Below, piece after piece: positions 23,723-45,002 of a DNA stretch of 64,000 nt (the stretch's first letter is position 1; every line of letters begins with the position of its first letter). Below the pieces are notes generated by a model. It was not told the origin of the DNA. It was given only the letters and a program-made list of their open reading frames with translations, and ran no database searches. The translations under genes and the position numbers were made by a program. Origin of the DNA: a virus (Duplodnaviria; Caudoviricetes); IMG/VR virus record IMGVR_UViG_3300025789_000018. One strand, 5' to 3'.

Positions 23723-23758
23723 TATAAATATCGTATAATCGTCGGTATCTTATTTATA
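23723..23758. promoter_or_regulatory. Face-to-face pair of T4-type late promoters (TATAAATA + at 23723-23730; - at 23751-23758)
   Basis: Exact T4 late consensus on both strands between divergent gp48 and gp4. Confidence 0.8.
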
Positions 23759-33625: not shown

Positions 33626-33631
33626 ATATTT

Positions 33632-33698
33632 TATAAATAAGATGTGACTCGCGGTTTCGCACACCCAGTCACTCTAACGCTTACAAGGAGCAATCAGC
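33632..33698 (+). promoter_or_regulatory. Late promoter plus conserved structured leader (copy 1) of a homing endonuclease gene
   Basis: TATAAATA, GTGACT/AGTCAC stem with CGC bulge, TCTAACGCTTACAAGGAGCAATCAGCATG. Confidence 0.8.
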
Positions 33699-34469
33699 AT
33701 GACTATTTATACAGGATACGTATATCTTTGGTACGACACCAGAGCAAAATTCTTTTATCTTGGTGGCCACAAAGGTAAAGTAGAAGATTCTTATATCTGC
33801 TCTAACAAAATGATGCTGAGAGCATACAAGAAACGTCCAGAAACATTCAAATTTCGTGTGCTTGAATATGTTTACGGCGACAACAAAGCTTTGCGTGAAG
33901 CAGAACAACGTTGGCTAAACATGATCAAAGACGAAGAACTTTATTGGACACCAAACATTTACAACAAAACTGTTAGATATTACAACCAGAAGAAACATTC
34001 TGCTGGAGGTAATGGCACTGCCAATAAAGGCAAAAGTAGACCAAGTTGGAGCAAAGGATATACAAAAGATGAAATAAATCTAAGAAGAGACGGTCTGTTG
34101 TCTTTCTTTCCTTTAGATATTCCTAAGAAACTTCCAAAAAGGCGTCAACTAGACAAAAGTAAAACAAAAATAAAAGAAGCAAAACCAAAGTTTTGTAAAG
34201 TGTATTCGCATATATGCGAAAAGTGTGCTAAAAACTTCTATCATAAAAAAGATGATATTAGATTTTGCTCTCTATCATGCCGCGCAAGTAATGCAGCATC
34301 TTTAGTAAAGGTAAATGGCATGAAGAAAGAACAAACTAGAAAAAGTTTTTCTAATCTAACCACTGGAAGAAAAATGTCCACGAGAGAAGACGGCACAAGA
34401 TATTGGACATATCCAGATAATGAGGGTGTTTATTTCACAGAGTACACCCACAAACTCCGAACTACTTAG
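33699..34469 (+). CDS. GIY-YIG (Seg-like) homing endonuclease, inverted, inside the tmRNA locus
   Basis: GYVYLW...FFYLGGHKG...Y..S, E..WL, YYN; C-terminal Cys-rich segment. Confidence 0.85.
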   Translation: MTIYTGYVYLWYDTRAKFFYLGGHKGKVEDSYICSNKMMLRAYKKRPETFKFRVLEYVYGDNKALREAEQRWLNMIKDEELYWTPNIYNKTVRYYNQKKHSAGGNGTANKGKSRPSWSKGYTKDEINLRRDGLLSFFPLDIPKKLPKRRQLDKSKTKIKEAKPKFCKVYSHICEKCAKNFYHKKDDIRFCSLSCRASNAASLVKVNGMKKEQTRKSFSNLTTGRKMSTREDGTRYWTYPDNEGVYFTEYTHKLRTT

Positions 34470-34755
34470 ATCAGGCAGACATTCTCACGGCTGCAAAATC
34501 GTTGTCGTTATGTGCAACTAGGTTGACATTTACAGTTTTAGCCACTCGGCCAGCGAATCAGTCTAGACTTTCCTATCCAATGCAAATCGATCCCAGGTCA
34601 TCCCCATCAACTACACTGTGCTATATAAGGATAGCGTTAGTCCTAAGTCTTTAGACAATACTATCTAGCAGATACTAAATGCACAGTATAGATGGTGGAG
34701 ATGGGGAGAATCGAACTCCCGTCTTTACATCTTTCAGTCCGCTTTCAAACAACTG
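34424..34755 (-). ncRNA. ssrA: Two-piece (circularly permuted, alphaproteobacterial-type) tmRNA
   Basis: Acceptor piece ends GGGAG-TTCGATT-CTCCC-CATCTCC-ACCA (3' A at 34693). An 87-nt intervening segment follows. The coding piece starts GGGGATG at 34605, giving a 7-bp acceptor stem with G3:U70. Helix 2 TTTGCAT/ATGTAAA. Tag frame 34515-34471 reads AHNDNDFAAVRMSA*. Confidence 0.9.
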
Positions 34756-34761
34756 ATAACT

Positions 34762-34792
34762 TATTTATACGCGAAACGCATATAAATGTCAA
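34762..34792 (-). promoter_or_regulatory. Dual sigma70/late promoter for tmRNA
   Basis: TTGACA-N17-TATAAA, where the -10 box is also a T4 late TATAAATA. Confidence 0.75.
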
Positions 34793-34796
34793 GAGA

Positions 34797-35000
34797 TTAT
34801 TTTACCTTTTTGTTGACTTTGGCCTTTGGTGCAGGCGTTAGAGCAGCTTCTAGACGCTCTTCCAGATCCTTGATGTCTGCTTCAGCAGTGGCAAGCTTTT
34901 CCTTCAGTCGGGCACTTTCGATAGTATCTGCGCTTACAACCGTACCAGCCACAAATGCTACGAACAGCAATGCAATGAAAATTCCGTATACAATAAACAT
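34797..35000 (-). CDS. Small membrane-anchored coiled-coil protein
   Basis: N-terminal hydrophobic helix; GGAGA RBS. Confidence 0.6.
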   Translation of the reverse strand: MFIVYGIFIALLFVAFVAGTVVSADTIESARLKEKLATAEADIKDLEERLEAALTPAPKAKVNKKVK

Positions 35001-35032
35001 AATGTTCTCCTATTATAAAATGGCAATGATAC

Positions 35033-35173
35033 CTAGATATTTATATCGTTAGCCTCATCATTCCAGACGTCTTTGATCTGCCGACCTCGACCGACTGTCT
35101 TCTTCTTGCTCTCTATAATCTTGGGCTTGTTATAGCGCCAAGAGTTACCAGCAACAGGATTACGCGGCTTCAT
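35033..35173 (-). CDS. Small basic protein, weakly ArfA-like (46 aa, not in ORF track)
   Basis: MKPRNPVAGNSWRYNKPKIIESKKKTVGRGRQIKDVW...; overlaps the upstream gene's end. Confidence 0.45.
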   Translation of the reverse strand: MKPRNPVAGNSWRYNKPKIIESKKKTVGRGRQIKDVWNDEANDINI

Positions 35174-35564
35174 TGACTTTCTCCAACCATTGCTTGATCG
35201 AACCAAACTTCAGATCAAAACACCATTCAAGACGTTCATAGCCGTAGAAGTTCAAATCATCAAGTTCATCTTCTGCATCCTCAAGGATTTCAATAGCATG
35301 TTCAACCGAAGTACCAGGAACAAGTTCCTGAATCTTCTCAATGCGGCCGACAAAAACCTTGAAGTTGTTTTCATGACGAATAGCTTCTTCTCGGTTTTGA
35401 AGATCAAGCATTTTAACCAGAAACTCAAAGTCCTTTTCAAAAGCTTCTAGAGAAAGGAAAGTGATCCCACGAGGGCGAAAGCCGTTAAGATCCTTGAAAA
35501 GATCCGAATAGATGTCACCATCATGCGAGTTGGTCAGGGCGTTGATGTCCGACAGGTTCAACAT
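35160..35564 (-). CDS. Hypothetical early protein
   Basis: ORF directly behind an early promoter cassette; SDLFKDLNGFRPR motif. Confidence 0.7.
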   Translation of the reverse strand: MLNLSDINALTNSHDGDIYSDLFKDLNGFRPRGITFLSLEAFEKDFEFLVKMLDLQNREEAIRHENNFKVFVGRIEKIQELVPGTSVEHAIEILEDAEDELDDLNFYGYERLEWCFDLKFGSIKQWLEKVNEAA

Positions 35565-35652
35565 TTCGAATCACTCCATCTCTCTGCTACATTCTCACAA
35601 TACGATGATTCGATAAAAATGTCAACCCAAAAGTTGTTTCAGTGCGTGAAAC

Positions 35653-35946
35653 TCAGAATGATGTCCACTCGTACTCGCTGTTACCTGTCTTGAAGCGAAC
35701 ATAGAGAAAGTTTGGATCCTCAGGATCAGTTCGCTCTTCCAGAATCTCAGTGATGTATGTGGTCTGCCACCAGTCGTATTCAGAGTACGACCGAGCATAG
35801 ATACTACCTACACGCATGACAACACCAACACGAGGTACTGCCGCATTTTCATACTGAATCTGATTATTATTGTCTTTCCATAGTGCCATGGACATGTTGC
35901 CCGAGTCACCAGCTTCATCTCTTGTTCTACGCAATGAATATGCCAT
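35653..35946 (-). CDS. Hypothetical protein
   Basis: ORF in tightly packed leftward cluster. Confidence 0.6.
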   Translation of the reverse strand: MAYSLRRTRDEAGDSGNMSMALWKDNNNQIQYENAAVPRVGVVMRVGSIYARSYSEYDWWQTTYITEILEERTDPEDPNFLYVRFKTGNSEYEWTSF

Positions 35947-35947
35947 A

Positions 35948-36217
35948 TTACCACTCCGTTCCTACGGTGAAGTTAGTCTTTTCGTATGCTTGGAACCAGT
36001 CAACACCATATGCAGGGCAGATATAGATTGTATCAGGTAGACCGTTGGTATCCTTCTCACCACCTTCACCACAGATGAAGTAGCGATCACCAAGCTTCTC
36101 TGCTAAAATGGTGTGGTAAACTAGTCTATAGAACTTCCGAAGTTCTTCTAGTTCGCCTTCGAATGCTTCGGTCTTAAGATTACTATCAGAAAAATGCTCT
36201 TGCATTAGTTTACCCAC
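35948..36217 (-). CDS. Hypothetical protein
   Basis: ORF in tightly packed leftward cluster. Confidence 0.6.
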   Translation of the reverse strand: MGKLMQEHFSDSNLKTEAFEGELEELRKFYRLVYHTILAEKLGDRYFICGEGGEKDTNGLPDTIYICPAYGVDWFQAYEKTNFTVGTEW

Positions 36218-36384
36218 ATCTTAAATAAAAGAGATGATAGATATATTGGCCAGATAGCCGCAGCAAATGCAGTGCCAATACACACAGGAACATCGTTTAA
36301 ACCGTCACGATATTCATCACCATGTTTTGCTTGATGATAACCACCCGACAATACTGCGATAATAATGTATAAGATAACAAACAT
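36205..36384 (-). CDS. Small membrane protein
   Basis: Two hydrophobic segments; start taken at MFVILY. Confidence 0.55.
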   Translation of the reverse strand: MFVILYIIIAVLSGGYHQAKHGDEYRDGLNDVPVCIGTAFAAAIWPIYLSSLLFKMWVN

Positions 36385-36385
36385 A

Positions 36386-36559
36386 TCATTGATTCCAAGC
36401 AAAGTCGCCATTAGTGGCATCGTAGTGTGCTGCATGATGCTTTATTACATCATTCTTCCAGGTGTTAGTAACAAGACCAAATGCGATAGCATATCCTACT
36501 AGTACACCGATTAAAAGATATACAACACAAATACCAAAGCCGCCATCATCCGTTTTCAT
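36386..36559 (-). CDS. Small membrane protein (57 aa, not in ORF track)
   Basis: MKTDDGGFGICVVYLLIGVLVGYAIAFGLV...; GGAGA RBS; fills the gap between ORFs. Confidence 0.55.
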   Translation of the reverse strand: MKTDDGGFGICVVYLLIGVLVGYAIAFGLVTNTWKNDVIKHHAAHYDATNGDFAWNQ

Positions 36560-36595
36560 TACACATTCTCCATCAATATACTTTAAGTTATCGGA

Positions 36596-36808
36596 TTACT
36601 CTCCTGGAATCCTGTACCAGTCAATGACTAGATCAAACGCATCAATGGCTTTCTGGATTTCAATATCATCTGCTTCTGAATCACCAAAGACAAACACGCT
36701 GTTATTTGCGCCTAGGTCTTGCGCAAGACTGTCTCGGGTCTCTTCAAGAGACTTCCATACAATCCGATCAAGTTGCTCATACGATAGTTCAACAGTCTTA
36801 TATGACAT
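36596..36808 (-). CDS. Hypothetical protein
   Basis: ORF coupled to its neighbours. Confidence 0.55.
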   Translation of the reverse strand: MSYKTVELSYEQLDRIVWKSLEETRDSLAQDLGANNSVFVFGDSEADDIEIQKAIDAFDLVIDWYRIPGE

Positions 36809-37062
36809 TATACTTCAACCTTTCTATAGCGGGCATATGTACCATCGGTATGTTCTACCATGATTTCAACATGATTGTCAACAGTATTTTGACCAATAAT
36901 ATGCCCGATAGGGTTATTATTATCATGTGTCATACTAGCAGCATCAAAGCCTTCATTCCAAGCAGCATCCAACGTTAGATGTCGCTTAAAGATATACACG
37001 AACATGGCCAACATTAAAACGGCTGGTAGAGACACCAGCAAGTCTGGAACACTACAAGACAT
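36808..37062 (-). CDS. Hypothetical membrane-anchored protein
   Basis: N-terminal hydrophobic helix. Confidence 0.5.
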   Translation of the reverse strand: MSCSVPDLLVSLPAVLMLAMFVYIFKRHLTLDAAWNEGFDAASMTHDNNNPIGHIIGQNTVDNHVEIMVEHTDGTYARYRKVEV

Positions 37063-37065
37063 ACT

Positions 37066-37311
37066 TCAACCTTCCATATCTACAGTTGGTACAGTTTGCC
37101 ATTCCATAGAACTAACAACTTTATCGCCTACTACACTGTTAACGTGTACTTTGATTTGGATTTCAGTTCGACCTGTATACTCTTTTTGGTTCACAGCACC
37201 TTGAGTAGTTGACACGAATCGATTCTTATAGAAACGCACAACTCGCATATTATCAACCACGGCCAATCTCCTTCTTGTATTGGGCGAGGGCGGAATGCCA
37301 GTTTCCACCAC
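37066..37311 (-). CDS. Hypothetical protein (true start possibly 37248)
   Basis: ORF in leftward cluster. Confidence 0.45.
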   Translation of the reverse strand: MVETGIPPSPNTRRRLAVVDNMRVVRFYKNRFVSTTQGAVNQKEYTGRTEIQIKVHVNSVVGDKVVSSMEWQTVPTVDMEG

Positions 37312-37519
37312 AGTGTTCTTTTACTACGCAGACAGTCTTAAGTATCCGCTTCAAAGCTTCCTCGTCAGGATCAACAGGTGGCTGCTCGTACTTCACGATC
37401 ATGCGGGCGAGGACAGTCACTGGGTCATCATATATGATGTACCAGTTGTTGCTAACCTGGTCGTTCAGCATTTTAACTGCTCGCTGGCGGGCCCACAATG
37501 GAATATTTTCATCAGTCAT
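37253..37519 (-). CDS. Hypothetical protein
   Basis: Start at MTDENIPLW with GGAG RBS. Confidence 0.55.
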   Translation of the reverse strand: MTDENIPLWARQRAVKMLNDQVSNNWYIIYDDPVTVLARMIVKYEQPPVDPDEEALKRILKTVCVVKEHCGGNWHSALAQYKKEIGRG

Positions 37520-37533
37520 TTTTATAAACTCCG

Positions 37534-37602
37534 TATAAATAGAAGTGTCTGTCGCGATACTCCAATATCCACAGACTCTAACGCTAAACAGGAGCATCAG
37601 CT
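37534..37602 (+). promoter_or_regulatory. Late promoter plus conserved structured leader (copy 2)
   Basis: TATAAATA; GTCTGT/ACAGAC stem, CGC bulge, GATA/TATC; TCTAACGCTAAACAGGAGCATCAGCTATG. Confidence 0.8.
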
Positions 37603-38124
37603 ATGAATATATATCTTTATATCAAACAATGTACACATTGTCAACTAAAATATTTTGGTAAAACATCACAATCAAATCCTTATGAATATAAAGGATCAGG
37701 AAAGAGATGGCGTAATCACCTAAAGAAACACAAAGCATCTGTTATAACACTTGAAGTTTTTTCATTTGATAATGAACAAGATGCTAAAGAGTTTGCTCTA
37801 GCGTTTTCTAGAGAACACTCAATAGTAGAATCTAAAGAGTGGGCAAATCTTATAGAAGAAGACGCACTCTGTGGTGGATCAAGACCATATAATAAAGAAG
37901 CAAACAAGAAAAACTCTAAACTGGGTGGATTTGCTAAAGCGGCAAAAGGATATCCAGTTTGGAACAAAGGTCTAAAGACTGGTCCAGATTCAGAAGAAAC
38001 TAAAAGAAAAAAGAGCGCCAGTAGAACTGGCAACCGACGCTCTTATAGAGAAGATGGAACTTGGTTTTGGATCAAACCAACTCTGCCATCTCCACAGCAA
38101 GATTCAACGCTTGGACTTTCTTAG
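37603..38124 (+). CDS. GIY-YIG (Seg-like) homing endonuclease
   Basis: IYLYIKQC..C.LKYFGKT, YKGSG..W..H.KKH, WANL..E; NUMOD3-like WNKG tail. Confidence 0.85.
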   Translation: MNIYLYIKQCTHCQLKYFGKTSQSNPYEYKGSGKRWRNHLKKHKASVITLEVFSFDNEQDAKEFALAFSREHSIVESKEWANLIEEDALCGGSRPYNKEANKKNSKLGGFAKAAKGYPVWNKGLKTGPDSEETKRKKSASRTGNRRSYREDGTWFWIKPTLPSPQQDSTLGLS

Positions 38125-39049
38125 TTTGGTTTACACCATACCAAGATGAGGCGAGTCGCGTATCTGCGCTTCGGCCGAGTACATGGTCAGTCAGATAAGT
38201 GACCGCGTTATAGGCTTGCCAGAAAGTGCCTTCTGCAAACTGTGCGCCAGGCTGTTCATGGAGTGCTTCCATCGCAAACTGTGCAGCACGGCTGTGCAAC
38301 TGACCAGCGTTCTCAATAGCAGAGTTCTTCTTATCAGAGGTCTTGGGGAAGATACGATTGAAGTATTCAACGATGTTTTCGTTGCTGTACTTCTTGGTGC
38401 CGAGAAAGGCTGCCATTTCCTTATACTTAGCAAGCTTATCACTAGCAATACCGAGAGTTTCCTTGACCATATCAGGATCAAACTCACGGCGGTGATTGAT
38501 CTTCACCATGTTAGAAGCCTTACCACCAAGGGCAAGTGTCAGAGTGTTATTGCAGACAACACGAATGGGAGTAAAACGAACGTCAATCGACTTACCATAC
38601 TGATGAGGATTGCTGAAGAGCAGGAAGCCTTCAACCTTGTCTCCACCAAACAGTTCAAATGAGTCGTTGATCTTTGCAAGACCCCAGACCATCTTGCCGT
38701 CCATCAGAGAACCAGCAGTGTGCATGGACATATCGCCAGCACCAACAAAATCATTGAAGAAGCGAAATGCTTCCACATTCTGAAGTGGATTCCAGTCATC
38801 CGTGATAACGTCAAGCACCTTGCTATCGCTGCTACGGATCAGAGCAGAGTGACCAGTGTTGATCTTCTGACCGTTATACATTGCAGGAAGAGGAACAGTG
38901 TCAACTGTCCAGTCAAGCCGAGCAGCTTCCATCATCTGTTCAGGAGTGAGGTCATTAGAGACCTTGAAGCCGAGACCGTGCCAGGGCAGATCGCCAGCGT
39001 ATGCATGACTAAAAGATCCATCAGAAAGTTGTTCAATCATATGTGCCAT
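38072..39049 (-). CDS. DUF932-family protein
   Basis: PWHGLG, PLQN.EAF.FF, TAGSL.DG..VW.LA, TPIRVVC.NTL. Confidence 0.9.
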   Translation of the reverse strand: MAHMIEQLSDGSFSHAYAGDLPWHGLGFKVSNDLTPEQMMEAARLDWTVDTVPLPAMYNGQKINTGHSALIRSSDSKVLDVITDDWNPLQNVEAFRFFNDFVGAGDMSMHTAGSLMDGKMVWGLAKINDSFELFGGDKVEGFLLFSNPHQYGKSIDVRFTPIRVVCNNTLTLALGGKASNMVKINHRREFDPDMVKETLGIASDKLAKYKEMAAFLGTKKYSNENIVEYFNRIFPKTSDKKNSAIENAGQLHSRAAQFAMEALHEQPGAQFAEGTFWQAYNAVTYLTDHVLGRSADTRLASSWYGVNQTKKVQALNLAVEMAELV

Positions 39050-39133
39050 AGTATATTTCCTTTCACAACATCATTGTTGATATATTCTTATTACAACATT
39101 TTAGAAAAAATGTCAACCAAAAAATCAATCTTA

Positions 39134-39200
39134 TATAAATAAAATGTCTGTCACGGTATCCCCATACCCACAGACTCTAACGCTAAACAGGAGCATCAGC
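39134..39200 (+). promoter_or_regulatory. Late promoter plus conserved structured leader (copy 3)
   Basis: TATAAATA; GTCTGT/ACAGAC, CAC bulge, GGTAT/ATACC; TCTAACGCTAAACAGGAGCATCAGCATG. Confidence 0.8.
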
Positions 39201-39707
39201 ATGTCTATTTATCACACACATCACATTGTCCCTCGCCATATGGGAGGCACAGACGATCCTTCAAATCTTGTCAGATTGACGATTGAAGAACACGCGGAAG
39301 CGCATAAAAAGTTGTATGAGGAATACGGCAAAGAAGAGGATAGGATTGCTTGGTTAGCCTTGTCTGGCCAGATTACTCTCTCTGAGGCATCTAAAATGGC
39401 TCATATTCTAGGTTCTTACAAAGGTGGATATGCGAAGAAACCCAACAAAGTACCAGCGCACAATAAAATAGATTGTTATTGCGTTGGTTGTAGAAAAAGA
39501 ATGAAACCTTCAGAGAAGGGTCACAAACTTTGTTTTAAAAAAGCATATGGTTTAGAGAGAACGCCAAACTCTTCTTTTTTCACATCAGAAAACGGTAAAG
39601 ATATATCTAAAAGAAACAATGCCACCTCTACTTGTCCACACTGCAATAAACAAGGTCAATATAGAGCAATGAAAAGATGGCATTTTGATAAATGTAAAGC
39701 GAAATGA
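39201..39707 (+). CDS. HNH (Mob-like) homing endonuclease (probable start 39201)
   Basis: HTHHIVPRHMGG.D...NLV.LT.EEH..AH; C-terminal CPHC...KRWHF.KCK. Confidence 0.85.
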   Translation: MSIYHTHHIVPRHMGGTDDPSNLVRLTIEEHAEAHKKLYEEYGKEEDRIAWLALSGQITLSEASKMAHILGSYKGGYAKKPNKVPAHNKIDCYCVGCRKRMKPSEKGHKLCFKKAYGLERTPNSSFFTSENGKDISKRNNATSTCPHCNKQGQYRAMKRWHFDKCKAK

Positions 39708-39713
39708 TTCGCT

Positions 39714-39959
39714 TTAAAATGTCAATGAAAAGTTTTCGTCATTCAAAATAAATGCGTGATCGTCGGTGTCGCCAGGAAACTCTTCAAACCAAACGATAGG
39801 GATAAACTCGTATCCGTCATGTTCGACACCGATCTTGCGAATCGTTACCCTCTTATCAAGAGTAGGACCTGGAATATCATACCCAGTTTTCTCATCAACC
39901 CACTCATCAACGTTGCAAAGCAAAGTTTGACCAACTTCAATGTTCTTAATCATAATCAA
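39714..39959 (-). CDS. Hypothetical early protein
   Basis: Follows an early promoter cassette. Confidence 0.6.
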   Translation of the reverse strand: MIMIKNIEVGQTLLCNVDEWVDEKTGYDIPGPTLDKRVTIRKIGVEHDGYEFIPIVWFEEFPGDTDDHAFILNDENFSLTF

Positions 39960-40017
39960 ATCACCTTTCTCACTGTCTATATTTTCATCATAACAGATTC
40001 GCGATAAATGTCAACCA

Positions 40018-40872
40018 CTATTTGCAGCAGGTGACTTTCGCCATCGACATCCACTTGGGGCTGTTCATGTTGCGGATTCCTGCAACCTTGAGAACCATAC
40101 GCAGCGAAAGTTCACGCATGGTGTTTTGATGCGTTTCAATGAAAGACACAACATCGACCTGTGCGGCCTTTGCGATACCTTCACGATCAAGCATACCCTT
40201 ATCAAGGACTTGCTTGATGCGGATCATATAGTCACGCTTAGTCTTCATCGTAAGATCGATATAATGCGAACGAGAAATCATAGCGTTCATATGAGGAGCC
40301 AACTTGTGGCCTTTGCCAATCATAGCATCAAAGTCAAGATTGGTAATGAAAATGATAGTACCTTCAAACTCAAAACTCTTGGGCATGACAGTCATATCGG
40401 TTTCATCGATCAGAGTACCTTCCGTCATGTAACTAATACGACGGACTTTATTGCTGTCACAAGCAGCTTTAAGAAGATTGAGTGAAATATCATCAAAGAA
40501 GATAGCATCGGCATCATCGAAAACCAAAACTTTGCCTTGATCTTTATGTTGAAAGAGCAAGCGATACAAAGATGGCGCTTTCAGATGACCCTTAACAATC
40601 GTATGATTTTCTTCGGAAGCATCCCATCCTTTGAGTGCTTCCTCTACGGTAAAAGACTTACCAAGACCAGCAGGACCAGATACGATCAAAGCGCGAATAT
40701 CACCCTTGATCGCAGCATGAGTCATTTCATCCAGAATATCAAAACGTTCGAGGATGCGTTCTGAAATCTCAGCATCAGTCTCGACAATCTTTTGAATGTT
40801 GACTTCGCTGATATCGCGAATCTTGACCTTAGAAGTTTTACGAAACCCAGCTTTAGGAACACCACGAGGCAT
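40018..40872 (-). CDS. AAA+/P-loop ATPase conserved in T4-like phages
   Basis: Walker A SGPAGLGKS, Walker B LVFDD.D, IIFITN, SRS. Confidence 0.8.
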   Translation of the reverse strand: MPRGVPKAGFRKTSKVKIRDISEVNIQKIVETDAEISERILERFDILDEMTHAAIKGDIRALIVSGPAGLGKSFTVEEALKGWDASEENHTIVKGHLKAPSLYRLLFQHKDQGKVLVFDDADAIFFDDISLNLLKAACDSNKVRRISYMTEGTLIDETDMTVMPKSFEFEGTIIFITNLDFDAMIGKGHKLAPHMNAMISRSHYIDLTMKTKRDYMIRIKQVLDKGMLDREGIAKAAQVDVVSFIETHQNTMRELSLRMVLKVAGIRNMNSPKWMSMAKVTCCK

Positions 40873-40929
40873 AACGAATCACTTTCTCTCTCTGACTACT
40901 TTTTCATCATAGCTGATTCGATAAAAATG

Positions 40930-41421
40930 TCAACCTTTTATACCAAGCGCCTTGCGACCAGGAGACATGTAATCTTTTTCAACATTTGTTTTATATGCAT
41001 GACAGCACTTGCAAAGTGTCTGACAGTTATCTTCAGTGTTGTGTGATGGATTGCCATCTTTGTGATCGACATCAAGCATACCATCCCAGATGATCGTGGT
41101 CGTGCAAGTAAATCCCAATCGACCGTCGATGTTTTCACAATAAGTTTTACGAAACTTACGGTAAGGATGAAAAGAGTTCGTAAACTGAGTTACATTATCA
41201 AACCCTGCTTTCTTTGCCATAACCTGCAGGATATTATCGAGACCATGCTGACTTGCTGTGTGTTTACTATGACATTTAGCGCAACGTTTCCGAAAGATTG
41301 GATATCCATCTTTTCGATATCGACCACAGTGTTGGCCAGTTTTGTTGCAACCATCAACGACGCACTTTGGCCTTTCGCTAATGTGAATAATCTTCTTTAT
41401 GACACTAGAACTAGCATTCAT
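40930..41421 (-). CDS. Zinc-binding HNH nuclease-like protein
   Basis: CxxxxC/CxxCH and LDVDHKDGN..HN...N.QTLCKCCH..KT. Confidence 0.8.
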   Translation of the reverse strand: MNASSSVIKKIIHISERPKCVVDGCNKTGQHCGRYRKDGYPIFRKRCAKCHSKHTASQHGLDNILQVMAKKAGFDNVTQFTNSFHPYRKFRKTYCENIDGRLGFTCTTTIIWDGMLDVDHKDGNPSHNTEDNCQTLCKCCHAYKTNVEKDYMSPGRKALGIKG

Positions 41422-41489
41422 AACGAATCACTTTCTCTCTCTGACTACTTTTTCATCATAGCTGATTCGATAAAAATGTCAAGCTTGCA

Positions 41490-42353
41490 TCAAAAGTTTT
41501 TTATCAAACATTCGGTGACTTTCACCTTTTGACCATCTTTGGCTCCTCGGCCTGCGGTGTATGTCACATCAAAAAGCAAAGGAGAAAACGAATCGATCAG
41601 TTTTGATTCGAAAAAGTTGTCATAATGATACTTGTTAGCCATCGCAACAAAAGCGCCAGCATTCGCTGCATTGTTCATCATATTGCACAGACGTTCTTGA
41701 TCATAATCATCAAAAGCATTTTTTGTGTACTTCGTAAAGCAATCGCGATATGGAGGATCAAGAAACACATACGTGTCTTGATTGACATATTTGTCAAGGG
41801 TTTCGAAATCGTTTGAATGTAGATTCAGGTTCTGCGAAAAGATATGAAAGGCATTAATGACATCAACATCATAGATTTTTTCACGTTCGTTCAGTAGACC
41901 ACATGGAGTACCAAACTTGTTGTTAGTGTTCTTATTGATTTGCCATATGCCATTAAAAGATGTTTTTAGTAGTGAAAATAGCAATCCAGCCCGCTCGGCG
42001 TCGCTTAGATGATTATATGCATGAATGTTACGTTGTTCATAATAGAATGTTTTTCTGTCTTCTTTGTTCTTCGAAATGTACAAAGACTGATACTGATCAA
42101 CCACCTCAAGAAACTCTTTCTTGTTTGTTTTGATCTGTTTATAGATGTTAATGATATCTTCGTTATAATCGTTCACAAAGAACTCTGTGTTGGGATATCG
42201 ATCAAAGATCCACATACAGACTGCACCAGTACCAAAAAACGGATCGACAAACCTATCAAACTTACTTCCTGGCCAGAAGTCTGATCCATACTTCGATTTC
42301 ATTTTAGTCTTAGCACCAGCCCAACGAAAAAGTGGCTTCAAATCTTTCATCAT
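41490..42353 (-). CDS. Dam-family (D12, alpha-class) N6-adenine DNA methyltransferase
   Basis: LFRWAG.K, motif I DPFFGTGAV, motif IV FLDPPY. Confidence 0.92.
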   Translation of the reverse strand: MMKDLKPLFRWAGAKTKMKSKYGSDFWPGSKFDRFVDPFFGTGAVCMWIFDRYPNTEFFVNDYNEDIINIYKQIKTNKKEFLEVVDQYQSLYISKNKEDRKTFYYEQRNIHAYNHLSDAERAGLLFSLLKTSFNGIWQINKNTNNKFGTPCGLLNEREKIYDVDVINAFHIFSQNLNLHSNDFETLDKYVNQDTYVFLDPPYRDCFTKYTKNAFDDYDQERLCNMMNNAANAGAFVAMANKYHYDNFFESKLIDSFSPLLFDVTYTAGRGAKDGQKVKVTECLIKNF

Positions 42354-42850
42354 ATCTCCAATAGTGATAGTGTTTTATCCATAATAGAAACGATTTCATC
42401 TAAAGTAAAACCGTGCTCGGACATATGAAACTTAAAGTTTTTAGGATACATAATAGTATACTGAGAGGCCAATCTGCCTAATGGTCCATGTGGTACAACA
42501 CCAGAGCCAGAACAAAACGTTACGTATTTGACATTCTGAGATTGCCATTTCGCAAAGTCTGCGTTTTTAACCCATCGCTCTTGAGCGTTTCCTCGCATGT
42601 CTTGTTTCTTTGCTTCGAAGACTGCTACGAGTGTACCATCACTATTATACCAAGCACCACCATCTGGAGCAAAACCCATAACTTTATCTGTTTTGAATAT
42701 CTCTATCTTCTTTTGCTTGCTCATACGTTTCACACACTTCAGGTGTGGATGATTCTTGGCAACAATATCGATAGCAAGCTTACATGTATTGTCTAGAGAC
42801 TTAGACAGAGTATCAAAAGCTGTAGTACCAACTTGTATGCCTCGACTCAT
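42350..42850 (-). CDS. EcoRI/MunI-like PD-(D/E)XK restriction endonuclease-like protein
   Basis: PDGG...VFEAKKQ...GNAQER..KN parallels EcoRI PDGG...AEAKHQ...GNAIERSHKN; 4-nt overlap with the methylase. Confidence 0.65.
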   Translation of the reverse strand: MSRGIQVGTTAFDTLSKSLDNTCKLAIDIVAKNHPHLKCVKRMSKQKKIEIFKTDKVMGFAPDGGAWYNSDGTLVAVFEAKKQDMRGNAQERWVKNADFAKWQSQNVKYVTFCSGSGVVPHGPLGRLASQYTIMYPKNFKFHMSEHGFTLDEIVSIMDKTLSLLEI

Positions 42851-42910
42851 ATCGAATCACCTTATATATCATTTACTACATTACTGATAATATAAGGATT
42901 AGAAAAAATG

Positions 42911-43597
42911 TCAAGTGGTTTTTTGAGGTACCTCGCCTGGTTGCTGAGATTTAATCCATTGCTGACCGACTCTATTTTTCACTGGACCTGTAGCGATCTT
43001 GCGAATCGTTTTGTGAACACCGTGGAGAAGATCCTCGCTGGCATTATTGTTATCAACAATATGCATGTTCTCATTACCGAAGTGATCCTGAAAGTGGCCG
43101 ATGTTGTCCTGGACTTGATTCCACATACGTTCAACGTGATGTGATGGCAATGATCGTTCACGCTCCATATTGCGCTGCTGAGCCACTGGAAGCGAGGTAT
43201 TGACGAACACCATATGTGTATCGTATCCCTGATTGCGTAGCGCCTCCGACTGCGCCTTGATCTTGGCCGCATCTTTCCCAGTACCATCGATTACCATACC
43301 TAGCTTACCTTGTTGATATAGCTTCTGGCGCTTGTTGGTGAGGTCTTTTGCTTTTGCTCTGACTACATCACGTTCTGCTGTTTCATGTTCAGGCATAGTT
43401 GGATCCAAGCCATGTTCTTTCATGCCCTTCTCAAACAGATCATCTGAGTTGACCATTTTGAAGCCTAAGCCGCCCATGGTTTTCTTTGTCACATAAGATT
43501 TGCCAGAACCAGGACCACCAGCAAGAAAGATTGCTTTTAGTTTTGCTGGATCATTAACGCCTTCTTCAAGGTCAACAAAGTCATTGAAACGTAGCAT
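42911..43597 (-). CDS. P-loop kinase (zeta-toxin/AAA_33-like), late-expressed, probable head-packaged protein
   Basis: AIFLAGGPGSGKS, VIDGTG, FV.TSL.VA..RN..R.R; TATAAATA at 43616-43623; N-terminal MLRFNDFVDLEE. Confidence 0.75.
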   Translation of the reverse strand: MLRFNDFVDLEEGVNDPAKLKAIFLAGGPGSGKSYVTKKTMGGLGFKMVNSDDLFEKGMKEHGLDPTMPEHETAERDVVRAKAKDLTNKRQKLYQQGKLGMVIDGTGKDAAKIKAQSEALRNQGYDTHMVFVNTSLPVAQQRNMERERSLPSHHVERMWNQVQDNIGHFQDHFGNENMHIVDNNNASEDLLHGVHKTIRKIATGPVKNRVGQQWIKSQQPGEVPQKTT

Positions 43598-43623
43598 GGA
43601 AACTCCTGTTTTTTATATTTATA

Positions 43624-44235
43624 TTATTTCTTATGCATGACAGCCATGGTCTGCTTCTGCTTCATTAGATCATCATAATCTTTTTCATAAGATTTTGATA
43701 CAGAATCAGGAGATGCTTTCCAGTCGTTTCTGAGATTATAAACATCACGATCAGTGACATAGTTCTCATCATCTTTAGGATCAAGATGAACTGCTTCATC
43801 AGACTTAGGATCATATGCATGAACGTTAATGCTAGGATGCTTGGATGCTTTGTCCCAAACACGTCTAGCGCCATGGGATTGATTCCCTGACGCTAGTATT
43901 TTATTGTGATTTAAGATTAGATGTTGATATAGATGTTCAGCACCTAAGGAGTCTTTGTTTGCATCTAGAAAGTCTACATGCTCTGCACCTTTGGTTCTAT
44001 ACTTTTTAGTAGATAGTGCTATGTTAACTTTGTTTGTTTTAGGGTCAGCGACATAGTATGTGTTTTCTTTTGTGGACAATGGTTTTTGATATACGTGATG
44101 GCCATTCTTAAGGATTCCAATATGTTTGGCCTTTTTAGGTACATCTTTACCAAGTTCATCATGAAAAACATCGCCTACATTGACGCCATTTTGCATGACT
44201 TCTTGTAGACTTCTAATGTCTTTAAACCGAATCAT
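43624..44235 (-). CDS. Late-expressed hypothetical protein, probable head-packaged
   Basis: Late promoter 44262-44269; same RBS (AGGAGTTTCCATG) as its neighbour; MIRFKDIRSLQE N-terminus. Confidence 0.6.
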   Translation of the reverse strand: MIRFKDIRSLQEVMQNGVNVGDVFHDELGKDVPKKAKHIGILKNGHHVYQKPLSTKENTYYVADPKTNKVNIALSTKKYRTKGAEHVDFLDANKDSLGAEHLYQHLILNHNKILASGNQSHGARRVWDKASKHPSINVHAYDPKSDEAVHLDPKDDENYVTDRDVYNLRNDWKASPDSVSKSYEKDYDDLMKQKQTMAVMHKK

Positions 44236-44261
44236 GGAAACTCCTAAACATTGTTTAGAAG

Positions 44262-44333
44262 TATTTATATAAATAGATGTGGTTCACGATGTTGACGCAT
44301 CTAACCACACTATCGCTAAACAGGAGCAACAGC
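44262..44333 (+). promoter_or_regulatory. Palindromic bidirectional late promoter TATTTATATAAATA plus conserved leader (copy 4)
   Basis: GTGGTT/AACCAC stem, CAC bulge, GATG/CATC; CTATCGCTAAACAGGAGCAACAGCATG. Confidence 0.8.
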
Positions 44334-45002
44334 ATGTCTATTTATCTCTATGTCAAACAATGTCCCCACTGTGGGCTAAAGTATTTTGGTAAAACAGAAC
44401 AAGATCCATATACTTACAACGGATCAGGAAAGATGTGGATTCCACACATCAAGAAACACAAAGTCACACCAAAAACAATAGAACTATATGAGTTTTCTGA
44501 TAAAGAGGAAGCAAAAAAGTTTGCTATAAACTTTTCTAAAGAAAACAGAATAGTAGAATCTAAAGAGTGGTTCAATCTTGTTATAGAACAGTGTGACGGT
44601 GGAGACACCTCGGCTTCTCCAGCATTTCAACGATGGATTGATCAGATAGACATGGCTGGTGAAAAAAATCCTATGTATGGTAGATCAGCAATAACTGAAC
44701 AAAATCTTCGTTGGTATACTAACGGTGAGAACAATCTATATCTTCCTGTCGGCACAGAGATGTTGGGTTATCGCCGAGGAAGAACTATAAAACATAGAAA
44801 ACCACATACACAAGAACATAAAGACAAGATATCTAAAGCAAATACGGGAAAGAAAAGTGTAAATCAAAAAACGTGCATATCACCTGATGGAAATATATAC
44901 GAATCTATCACACAAGCCGCAAACGCACATTCAATGACTGTATCGGCGTTCAGACATAAAATCGAACATAAAGAAAAACATTTGGGTTGGATTATTGTTT
45001 GA
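44334..45002 (+). CDS. GIY-YIG (Seg-like) homing endonuclease (probable start 44334)
   Basis: IYLYVKQC..C.LKYFGKT, Y.GSG..W..H.KKH; GEKNPMYG and HTQEHKDKIS (NUMOD3); C-terminal HTH-like segment. Confidence 0.85.
   Translation: MSIYLYVKQCPHCGLKYFGKTEQDPYTYNGSGKMWIPHIKKHKVTPKTIELYEFSDKEEAKKFAINFSKENRIVESKEWFNLVIEQCDGGDTSASPAFQRWIDQIDMAGEKNPMYGRSAITEQNLRWYTNGENNLYLPVGTEMLGYRRGRTIKHRKPHTQEHKDKISKANTGKKSVNQKTCISPDGNIYESITQAANAHSMTVSAFRHKIEHKEKHLGWIIV

Follow-up and report, generated by a model that had tools for sequence, protein, structure and literature searches.

The stretch of DNA analysed here, a 64,000-nucleotide (nt) window of the Caudoviricetes record IMGVR_UViG_3300025789_000018 in IMG/VR, codes for T4-type functions including baseplate and tail proteins, ribonucleotide reductase, a primase and a single-stranded DNA-binding protein. 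It also holds four nuclease genes, each of which carries at its head a copy of one module of approximately 95 bases. A late-promoter box, TATAAATA, opens every copy, and the ATG follows 58–61 nt past the end of that box. Within this interval the layout is the same in all four: a spacer of 3–5 nt, a 6-bp outer stem (P1), a C(G/A)C bulge, an inner hairpin (P2), one pyrimidine, the outer-stem partner and a linker, CTA(A/T)CGCT..GGAGCA..CAGC, which leads to the ATG. The outer stems read GTGACT/AGTCAC, GTCTGT/ACAGAC (in two copies) and GTGGTT/AACCAC, and the inner stems, of 3–5 bp, read GGT/ACC, GATA/TATC, GGTAT/ATACC and GATG/CATC. An original prediction, made from the letters of the window, had pointed to these four leaders; boxes, distances, stems, bulge, pyrimidine and linker all lie where it placed them, and the P1/P2 fold is, as it proposed, located entirely past the plus-strand box. 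The four copies are not a product of chance, because the linker pattern finds the four leader sites and two unrelated three-mismatch matches in the window against 0.29 expected, and because a covariance model built from 68 copies scores them at E values of 1e-17 to 1e-20, with the next-best match in the window at E 2.6.

The module extends well beyond this window. The linker alone matches more than 110 IMG/VR stretches among the matches listed, all with the same layout, and the covariance model identifies 7, 13 and 8 copies in single viral records of 244, 333 and 68 kb, respectively, as well as recovering further diverged copies. Removal of redundancy leaves a family of 101 distinct copies from more than 100 freshwater viral contigs, with up to 13 in one genome; covariation was computed on 68 distinct copies, and the strand and box statistics given below on all 101. 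The DNA is found in freshwater metagenomes. Searches of cultured phage genomes with near and distant DNA methods did not find the element, and a scan of bacterial genomes returned six matches in metagenome-assembled genomes, approximately the number expected by chance, of which the two longest partial matches lack the hairpin and none is a convincing copy. Rfam 15 contains no match to the module on either strand, at gathering thresholds or at E values up to 10, in line with the original prediction, which did not recognize it as a named Rfam family; the single Rfam 15 match in the region is a permuted transfer-messenger RNA (tmRNA) beside nuclease gene 1. As to the affinities of the phage itself, one structural protein in the window shows a weak match to a Bradyrhizobium phage.

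The covariation that the original prediction had read from four stems holds in the larger set. Across P1 (6 bp) and P2 (4 bp), 91% of cells are paired, compared with 31–43% in slid controls; 10 of 11 pairs change on both sides, in 185 cells versus 60 in shuffles, and the covariation score is 0.648, against 0.174 for shuffled alignments and 0.09 or less for slid ones. The diverged copies reveal a third helix, P3, in which CUAACGCU pairs with AGCAUCAG over 8 bp around the Shine-Dalgarno (SD) sequence, enclosing a UACAAGG loop. Compensatory changes are present at five of its eight pairs, among them an A-U to U-A exchange in copy 4 of the window. P3 was tabulated by anchors, because MAFFT aligned the variable-length linker poorly. 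The bulge and linker had been described as keeping their sequence: the bulge does, and the linker pattern is present, but the linker is itself a covarying helix. The middle base of the bulge, moreover, pairs with the apparently single pyrimidine (72 copies have G-C, 7 have A-U and 22 have A·C, and no copy has G·U), while the bulge cytosines C31 and C33 that surround it are invariant in all 101 copies.

The loops of P2 behave differently from its stem. Six of them coexist in the family with their exact reverse complements (CGCCAA/TTGGCG, CGGCAA/TTGCCG, TCCCCA/TGGGGA, CTCCAA/TTGGAG, CGTCAA/TTGACG and CTGGAA/TTCCAG), and two entire P2 hairpins are exact mutual reverse complements, as exemplified by window positions 44288-44301 and L031:6524-6621. 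Such pairs greatly exceed what chance would give and point to repeated inversion of the P2 loop, for which template switching in a quasi-palindrome is a possible route. That the loops vary and invert freely also led us to discard a pseudoknot joining the linker to the CRC bulge or to the P2 loop.

On which strand does the module fold? Non-Watson-Crick cells bear on this question. Read on the plus strand, that of the nuclease gene, all helices together contain 230 A·C cells against 9 G·U: P1 contributes 14 A·C (12 distinct variants) and no G·U, the bulge pair R:Y 22 and none, and P3 194 and 5. Because a plus-strand A·C is a G·U on the minus strand, every helix is valid on the latter. For P3 the disparity is pronounced, with 800 of 808 cells valid on the minus strand (99%) compared with 611 of 808 (76%) on the plus, and folding energies of approximately -7 and -3 kcal/mol, respectively. 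The minimum free energy (MFE) of the P1–P3 core is likewise lower on the minus strand, -16.6 versus -12.6 kcal/mol, the minus strand being better in 91 of 101 copies (Wilcoxon p 6e-17), and relative to shuffles the RNA of copy 3 has a z score of -3.35 on the minus strand and -0.83 on the plus. Two A·C positions in P3 are almost fixed, although U would be Watson-Crick on either strand; rather than mutational noise, the pattern resembles the outcome of selection that favours folding of one strand while keeping the ribosome site open on the other. Selection for pairing, in short, appears to act on the strand that does not encode the nuclease.

These data bear directly on the interpretation with which the module was first described, namely a plus-strand 5' leader with an unstructured linker, in which P1/P2 would serve as a 5'-terminal stabilizer or as a common protein or ligand site that licenses late translation of the nuclease. 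Several features are compatible with such a leader: P1 starts at the predicted +1, 3–5 nt past the plus-strand box; Watson-Crick pairs make up more than 97% of P1/P2 on this strand too; C31 and C33 do not vary; one element serves several nuclease families; and seg43 of phage 25 has a hairpin upstream of a free ribosome-binding site (RBS) (PMC2988022). A leader selected on the plus strand, however, should not accumulate A·C in place of G·U, its fold in copy 3 is no better than shuffles, the helix around the SD is weak where it ought to act but strong on the other strand, the loops of P2 invert freely, and a second, convergent box occupies codons 2–4 of the gene. The leader as originally proposed is not upheld by these results, and we consider a plus-strand role of this kind decidedly unlikely.

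The second box is the other distinguishing attribute of the module. Conservation runs on past the ATG, the last element of the layout in the original prediction, into TATTTA(T), which lies in nuclease codons 2–4 and reverse-complements the late-promoter core. The position weight matrices of this box and of the plus-strand box are equal; the latter has the consensus nATAAATA in about 90 of 101 copies, and the minus-strand box is if anything better conserved, with T3 and T7 present in 101 of 101. The box is maintained in all three reading frames, giving rise to the N-termini MxIY, MYL and MIFI, and where it abuts the ATG the spacer before the ATG is longer; its distance from P3 is 6–7 nt in 88 of 101 copies. 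Two late-type boxes thus face each other approximately 75 bp apart, each 3–7 nt from the foot of a helix. The window as a whole is enriched in TATAAATA (15 occurrences versus 5.2 expected), which also stands ahead of structural gene clusters, and the ordinary late promoters of the same genome are followed by no significant structure. The divergent structural clusters (window 23723-23758) have facing TATAAATA boxes, at 23723 on the plus strand and 23751 on the minus, such that their transcripts would overlap at the 5' ends; the crossed layout is that of the nuclease module, but no conserved fold goes with it. A different variation is found in the copies of L044, L087, L027 (two copies) and L047, where the plus-strand late box is replaced by TGTCAAC/TGACAAC, that is, a minus-strand TTGACA -35 box 7–8 nt after the hairpin. 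The nuclease genes of these copies appear, from their sequences, to lack a late promoter of their own.

Two exactly complementary boxes that flank a folded domain invite comparison with the control logic established for I-TevI, segB and Aeh1 mobE (PMC2988022; PMC2677866). On read-through plus-strand transcripts AUAAAUA would pair with the UAUUUAU after the AUG, closing a three-way junction that hides the start, and transcripts from the late promoter, without the 5' arm, would be translated. When examined as a promoter-in-hairpin arrangement, though, the sole helix that contains the box would consist of seven A-U pairs closing a multiloop, which would be marginally stable and shows no covariation; an extended promoter/anti-promoter helix was rejected for the same reason, in that variants of the two boxes do not co-vary. 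Context is also at odds with a mask. Of 87 scorable copies, 75 have an upstream neighbour encoded on the opposite strand, so most cassettes lack a co-directional upstream gene. Where the neighbour is divergent, the minus-strand box has stayed intact in 66 of 75 copies, and where it is co-directional, in only 7 of 12 (p 0.02, on small numbers), the opposite of what a read-through mask predicts. A mask of this type is, in our estimation, very unlikely.

Table 1. Positions in the window of the module copies, their helices, the predicted antisense RNAs and the associated genes and tracts
Feature	Position	Strand	Details
Module copy 1	33632..33711		Plus-strand box 33632-33639; ATG 33699; minus-strand box 33704-33711, reading TATTTATA on the plus strand
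Copy 1, helices			P1 33644-33649/33667-33672; P2 33653-33655/33663-33665; P3 33674-33681/33689-33697 (one extra A)
Copy 1, unpaired parts			Bulge CGC 33650-33652; unpaired C 33666
Module copy 2	37534..37615		Plus-strand box 37534-37541; ATG 37603; degenerate minus-strand box TATATATC 37608-37615
Copy 2, helices			P1 37547-37552/37571-37576; bulge CGC 37553-37555; P2 37556-37559/37566-37569; P3 37578-37585/37593-37600
Module copy 3	39134..39213		Plus-strand box 39134-39141; ATG 39201; minus-strand box 39206-39213
Copy 3, helices			P1 39146-39151/39170-39175; bulge CAC 39152-39154; P2 39155-39159/39164-39168; P3 39177-39184/39192-39199
Module copy 4	44268..44346		Plus-strand box 44268-44275; ATG 44334; minus-strand box 44339-44346
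Copy 4, helices			P1 44279-44284/44303-44308; P2 44288-44291/44298-44301; P3 44310-44317/44325-44332, compensatory U-A at pair 4
Copy 4, bulge			CAC 44285-44287 with unpaired T 44302 (A-U pair)
Predicted antisense RNA, copy 3	39128..39200	-	Adjacent hairpins P3' and P1'/P2', then AUUUUAUUUAU; MFE -22.7 kcal/mol, z -3.35
Counterpart predicted antisense stretches, copies 1, 2 and 4	33626-33698, 37528-37602, 44262-44333	-	
Homing and co-conversion tract	38990..39725		97-100% identity to the divergent phage locus L149; nuclease 3, module, 84-nt spacer and start of flanking gene
Nuclease gene 1	33699..34469	+	256 amino acids (aa); Seg-like GIY-YIG motif (YVYLWYD..FFYLGG); no significant profile match; stop abuts permuted tmRNA gene
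Nuclease gene 2	37603..38124	+	173 aa; CxxC GIY-YIG-like paralogue of gene 4, 56% identity over 84 aa
Nuclease gene 3	39201..39707	+	168 aa; HNH homing endonuclease (Pfam, PHROG)
Nuclease gene 4	44334..45002	+	222 aa; NUMOD3, weak I-TevI DNA-binding domain match, PHROG homing-endonuclease family match

Beyond the module, the minus strand has further features of interest. After P1' comes a U-rich tail, an A followed by 7–8 U in 12 nt, and then, in 33 of 100 copies compared with 9.6% of controls, a sigma-70-type promoter that is often a perfect TTGACA-N17-TATAAT, its -35 box mostly 7–30 nt after the hairpin. The minus-strand stem has two bulges and an AU-rich base and is not flagged by a simple consensus terminator scan. 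Copy 2 is instructive in this regard. Comparison with an insert-free relative places the border of the nuclease 2 insert 1–2 nt left of the plus-strand box, beside the SD of the flanking gene, such that the module forms the very end of the insert; the sigma-70-type promoter is absent here, and the flanking SD lies 13 nt after the hairpin. The flanking gene can consequently be reached only by transcription across the module, and the minus-strand hairpin can hardly act as an efficient terminator at this site.

It is conceivable that the minus-strand fold acts only on read-through early or middle phage transcripts, as a PeSL-like stem-loop serving as partial terminator, insulator or 3'/5' stabilizer, and that the TATTTA box is not a promoter at all. 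The antisense orientation of the cassettes to their neighbours is in keeping with this, as are the frequent minus-strand promoter, the absence of one between hairpin and flanking SD at copy 2, the persistence of the U-run in copies without a plus-strand box, and the precedent of composite terminator–promoter cassettes in T4-type phages (PMC4122927). Left unexplained would be why TAAATA is kept in codons 2–4, in every frame and at a fixed distance from P3, and why P3' is complementary to the nuclease ribosome site; a bulged stem on an AU-rich base is, besides, a poor terminator, and efficient termination at copy 2 would silence the flanking gene. We regard such a purely read-through role as unlikely, if less so than a plus-strand leader. 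PeSL-like elements may nonetheless occur nearby in their own right. A segment of about 66 nt bearing an early promoter of the TTGACA-N16-TATGAT type lies at window 39951-40017 and is present three times in the close relative L142 (1610-1666, 2157-2222 and 3171-3236); strong copies of the same promoter type are found at 40014, 40933, 41482 and 42914, on the minus strand. These repeats look like PeSL-like promoter cassettes around which the relative has been rearranged.

The module travels with its nuclease. Nuclease 3, its module, an 84-nt spacer and the start of the flanking gene form a tract that is 97–100% identical to a divergent phage locus, L149, whose flanking gene is only 65% identical to its counterpart in the window. 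One edge of the tract is sharp, about 15 nt past the nuclease 3 stop, and on the other identity decays gradually inside the flanking gene. A near-identical tract beside a 65%-identical gene, followed by decay, is the signature of homing and co-conversion, and it bears out the earlier suggestion of a portable cassette; 17 orthologous loci are without the insert. Losses and rearrangements accompany this mobility. In L003:3252-3348 and L142:3081-3182, from a 96%-identical relative, the HNH module of copy 3 is intact while the open reading frame (ORF) has been cut to four codons (ATGTCTACGATTTAA); the module is also placed differently relative to the flanking intergenic segments, and here the head has outlived the nuclease gene. 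Near cassette 2, the downstream gene (37253-37520, minus strand) encodes 88 aa, compared with about 255 aa in the insert-free and other relatives (L148:1131-1898) that share its C-terminus, and a 75-aa ORF of the insert-free relative is missing from the window, which together indicate that insertion was accompanied by replacement or deletion of neighbouring sequence.

Mobility could also be sought at the level of DNA, with the module forming a strand-specific single-stranded hairpin with extrahelical bases for recombination or cassette exchange, akin to attC sites or the ends of IS200/IS605. This would account for the same head, first codons included, on unrelated ORFs; G·T wobbles are tolerated in DNA hairpins as well, the bulged bases are invariant, and the six inverted P2 loops suggest hairpin extrusion in replication. 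Yet no recombinase is associated with the cassettes, ordinary homing with co-conversion explains their spread, and two promoter-like boxes at fixed spacing from the helices fit transcription better. We attach very little probability to this explanation.

We instead favour, tentatively and with slightly less than even confidence, a mobile bidirectional head module in which facing late boxes would produce a nuclease mRNA with an open SD and a structured antisense RNA that covers the SD and runs to the flanking gene. According to this model, which is built from sequence features, cassettes would have entered the genomes of freshwater T4-like phages in antisense orientation to the early-gene strand. 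The plus-strand box would start the nuclease mRNA at the first base of P1/P2 and leave its strong SD largely open. The minus-strand RNA may be started by the box in codons 2–4, at the foot of P3', or may arrive by read-through from upstream; it would run via P1'/P2' and either end in the U-rich tract or pass it toward the flanking phage gene. The conserved fold would be that of this RNA: its conserved G·U pairs would lend it stability, whereas the nuclease mRNA has A·C mismatches at those positions. Pairing with the nuclease SD and AUG, possibly starting with the 7-nt CCUUGUA loop against UACAAGG, would limit translation, and the same RNA may double as a structured, stabilizing leader, or as a partial stop, through which the phage gene beyond the insertion stays expressed.

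Several observations weigh against this model. Both boxes are late-type, which means that sense and antisense RNA would be made simultaneously, and copy 2 of the window retains the fold despite a degenerate minus-strand box. The U-rich tract and the complement of the plus-strand box are confounded, and the terminator scan raised no flag. Pairing alone explains neither the invariant bulge cytosines nor the conserved UCUA and CAGC spacers; these could mark a protein site. Lastly, a transcription-linked mutation bias could add some of the A·C excess, although the near-fixed mismatches in P3 are not explained thereby. A more specific version, in which every cassette would carry a dedicated late antisense small RNA gene—about 70 nt, two hairpins and a U tail, with the promoter in codons 2–4—is somewhat improbable. 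Its near-invariant P3', complementary to the ribosome site of each nuclease mRNA of the genome, would let one RNA family brake the whole set of unrelated nucleases in trans, and the G·U/A·C asymmetry would make the folding strand-selective.

The proteins encoded downstream agree with the original prediction, drawn from the four genes in the window, that the module is shared across nuclease families. Nearly every downstream ORF in the family is a homing-type nuclease, a few copies preceding decayed stubs. Among 63 downstream proteins, Pfam assigns HNH_3 to 11, HNH to 8, HNH_5 to 6, NUMOD3 to 21, TnsA-like to 4 and GIY-YIG to 3, along with several zinc-finger types; the family-wide domain tally is 28 HNH types, 21 NUMOD3, 4 TnsA-like and 3 GIY-YIG. 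Single-linkage clustering of these proteins was not used as a family count, because shared NUMOD-type DNA-binding modules merged most of them. Within the window, the earlier HNH label for the gene at 39201 is confirmed, and the GIY-YIG labels of the genes at 33699, 37603 and 44334 are plausible by motifs, NUMOD3 and a PHROG match but fall below Pfam thresholds. Two of the nuclease genes overlap, or nearly so, with their neighbours. The stop of nuclease gene 1 (34469) abuts or overlaps a permuted, two-piece type phage tmRNA gene on the minus strand (34380-34785; Rfam RF04321, 72 bits; ARAGORN tag peptide AHNDNDFAAVRMSA), and the tmRNA gene may for that reason be the homing neighbourhood of nuclease 1. 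The 3' end of nuclease gene 2 overlaps convergently with the last 52 nt of a minus-strand gene of 325 aa (38072-38124).

How does this module relate to the known repertoire of homing endonuclease control? Hairpins with TATAAATA upstream of unrelated free-standing endonucleases (GIY-YIG and Vsr-like) were reported at environmental phage loci, including some from a freshwater lake, by Dassa et al. in 2009, along with two conserved complementary motifs and the proposal that an invading element brings control signals for the neighbouring gene (PMC2677866). The general idea is therefore not new, and, comparing the two by description, the motif of that study may overlap the present family. There the hairpins were read as Aeh1-type sense-strand RBS masks, the loci were metagenomic 'fractured genes' whose split parts are co-oriented, and the description includes neither a covariance model nor a strand test nor a second promoter. 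What is new here is a family defined by three helices, its strand asymmetry, the second box that faces the first, and the scale on which the module occurs.

In the T-even endonuclease genes I-TevI, I-TevII, I-TevIII and segB, and in Aeh1 mobE, the late promoter lies inside a hairpin that hides the RBS on read-through sense transcripts (PMC2988022). The present module resembles these masks in having TATAAATA just upstream of a homing endonuclease gene and an RNA structure by the ribosome site, which would serve to restrict a selfish nuclease. It differs in that the hairpin comes after the promoter, the sense RBS helix is weak (approximately -3 kcal/mol), the fold seems to be selected on the antisense strand, a second box faces the first, and the genes are not co-oriented within an early or middle unit. 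Control of T4-type homing endonucleases has been known through this one paradigm, and the lake-phage family represents a different and widespread solution. Antisense transcription has a precedent in CfrI of cyanophage S-PM2, an experimentally detected antisense RNA that lies opposite a homing endonuclease gene in a T4-like phage and is co-expressed with it (PMC2984593). CfrI, with a length of about 225 nt, connects the nuclease gene with psbA, and its description mentions no multi-copy covarying module, facing late promoters or overlap of the ribosome site, the features of the module from which the antisense RNA is predicted here. The PeSL and PmSL elements of T4-type phages, for their part, are repeated short cassettes of stem-loop plus promoter in plastic regions, for which modular shuffling has been proposed (PMC4122927). 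A partial likeness may lie in the third of module copies followed by an early promoter on the minus strand; PeSLs, by contrast, use early or middle promoters and simple stems and flank ORFans with no tie to nucleases, while the module combines late-type boxes, three covarying helices and invariant bulges with a nuclease.

With three helices that covary across 101 sequences, and with a model already calibrated, the module is a ready candidate for a new RNA family, and it offers a clean natural case of strand-selective RNA folding through the asymmetry of G·U and A·C. A functional parallel to the proposed antisense RNA is the cis-antisense control of toxic genes: in type I toxin–antitoxin systems such as hok/sok, and in RNA-IN/RNA-OUT of IS10, a short structured antisense RNA lies over the translation start of a potentially harmful gene and presents a loop complementary to its target. 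In the phage module, where the antisense RNA is predicted, both promoters would be of the late phage type, and one head is common to many unrelated genes in a single genome. If such an RNA is indeed made, it would constitute a general and portable means for selfish genes to limit their own cost and protect the adjacent host gene.

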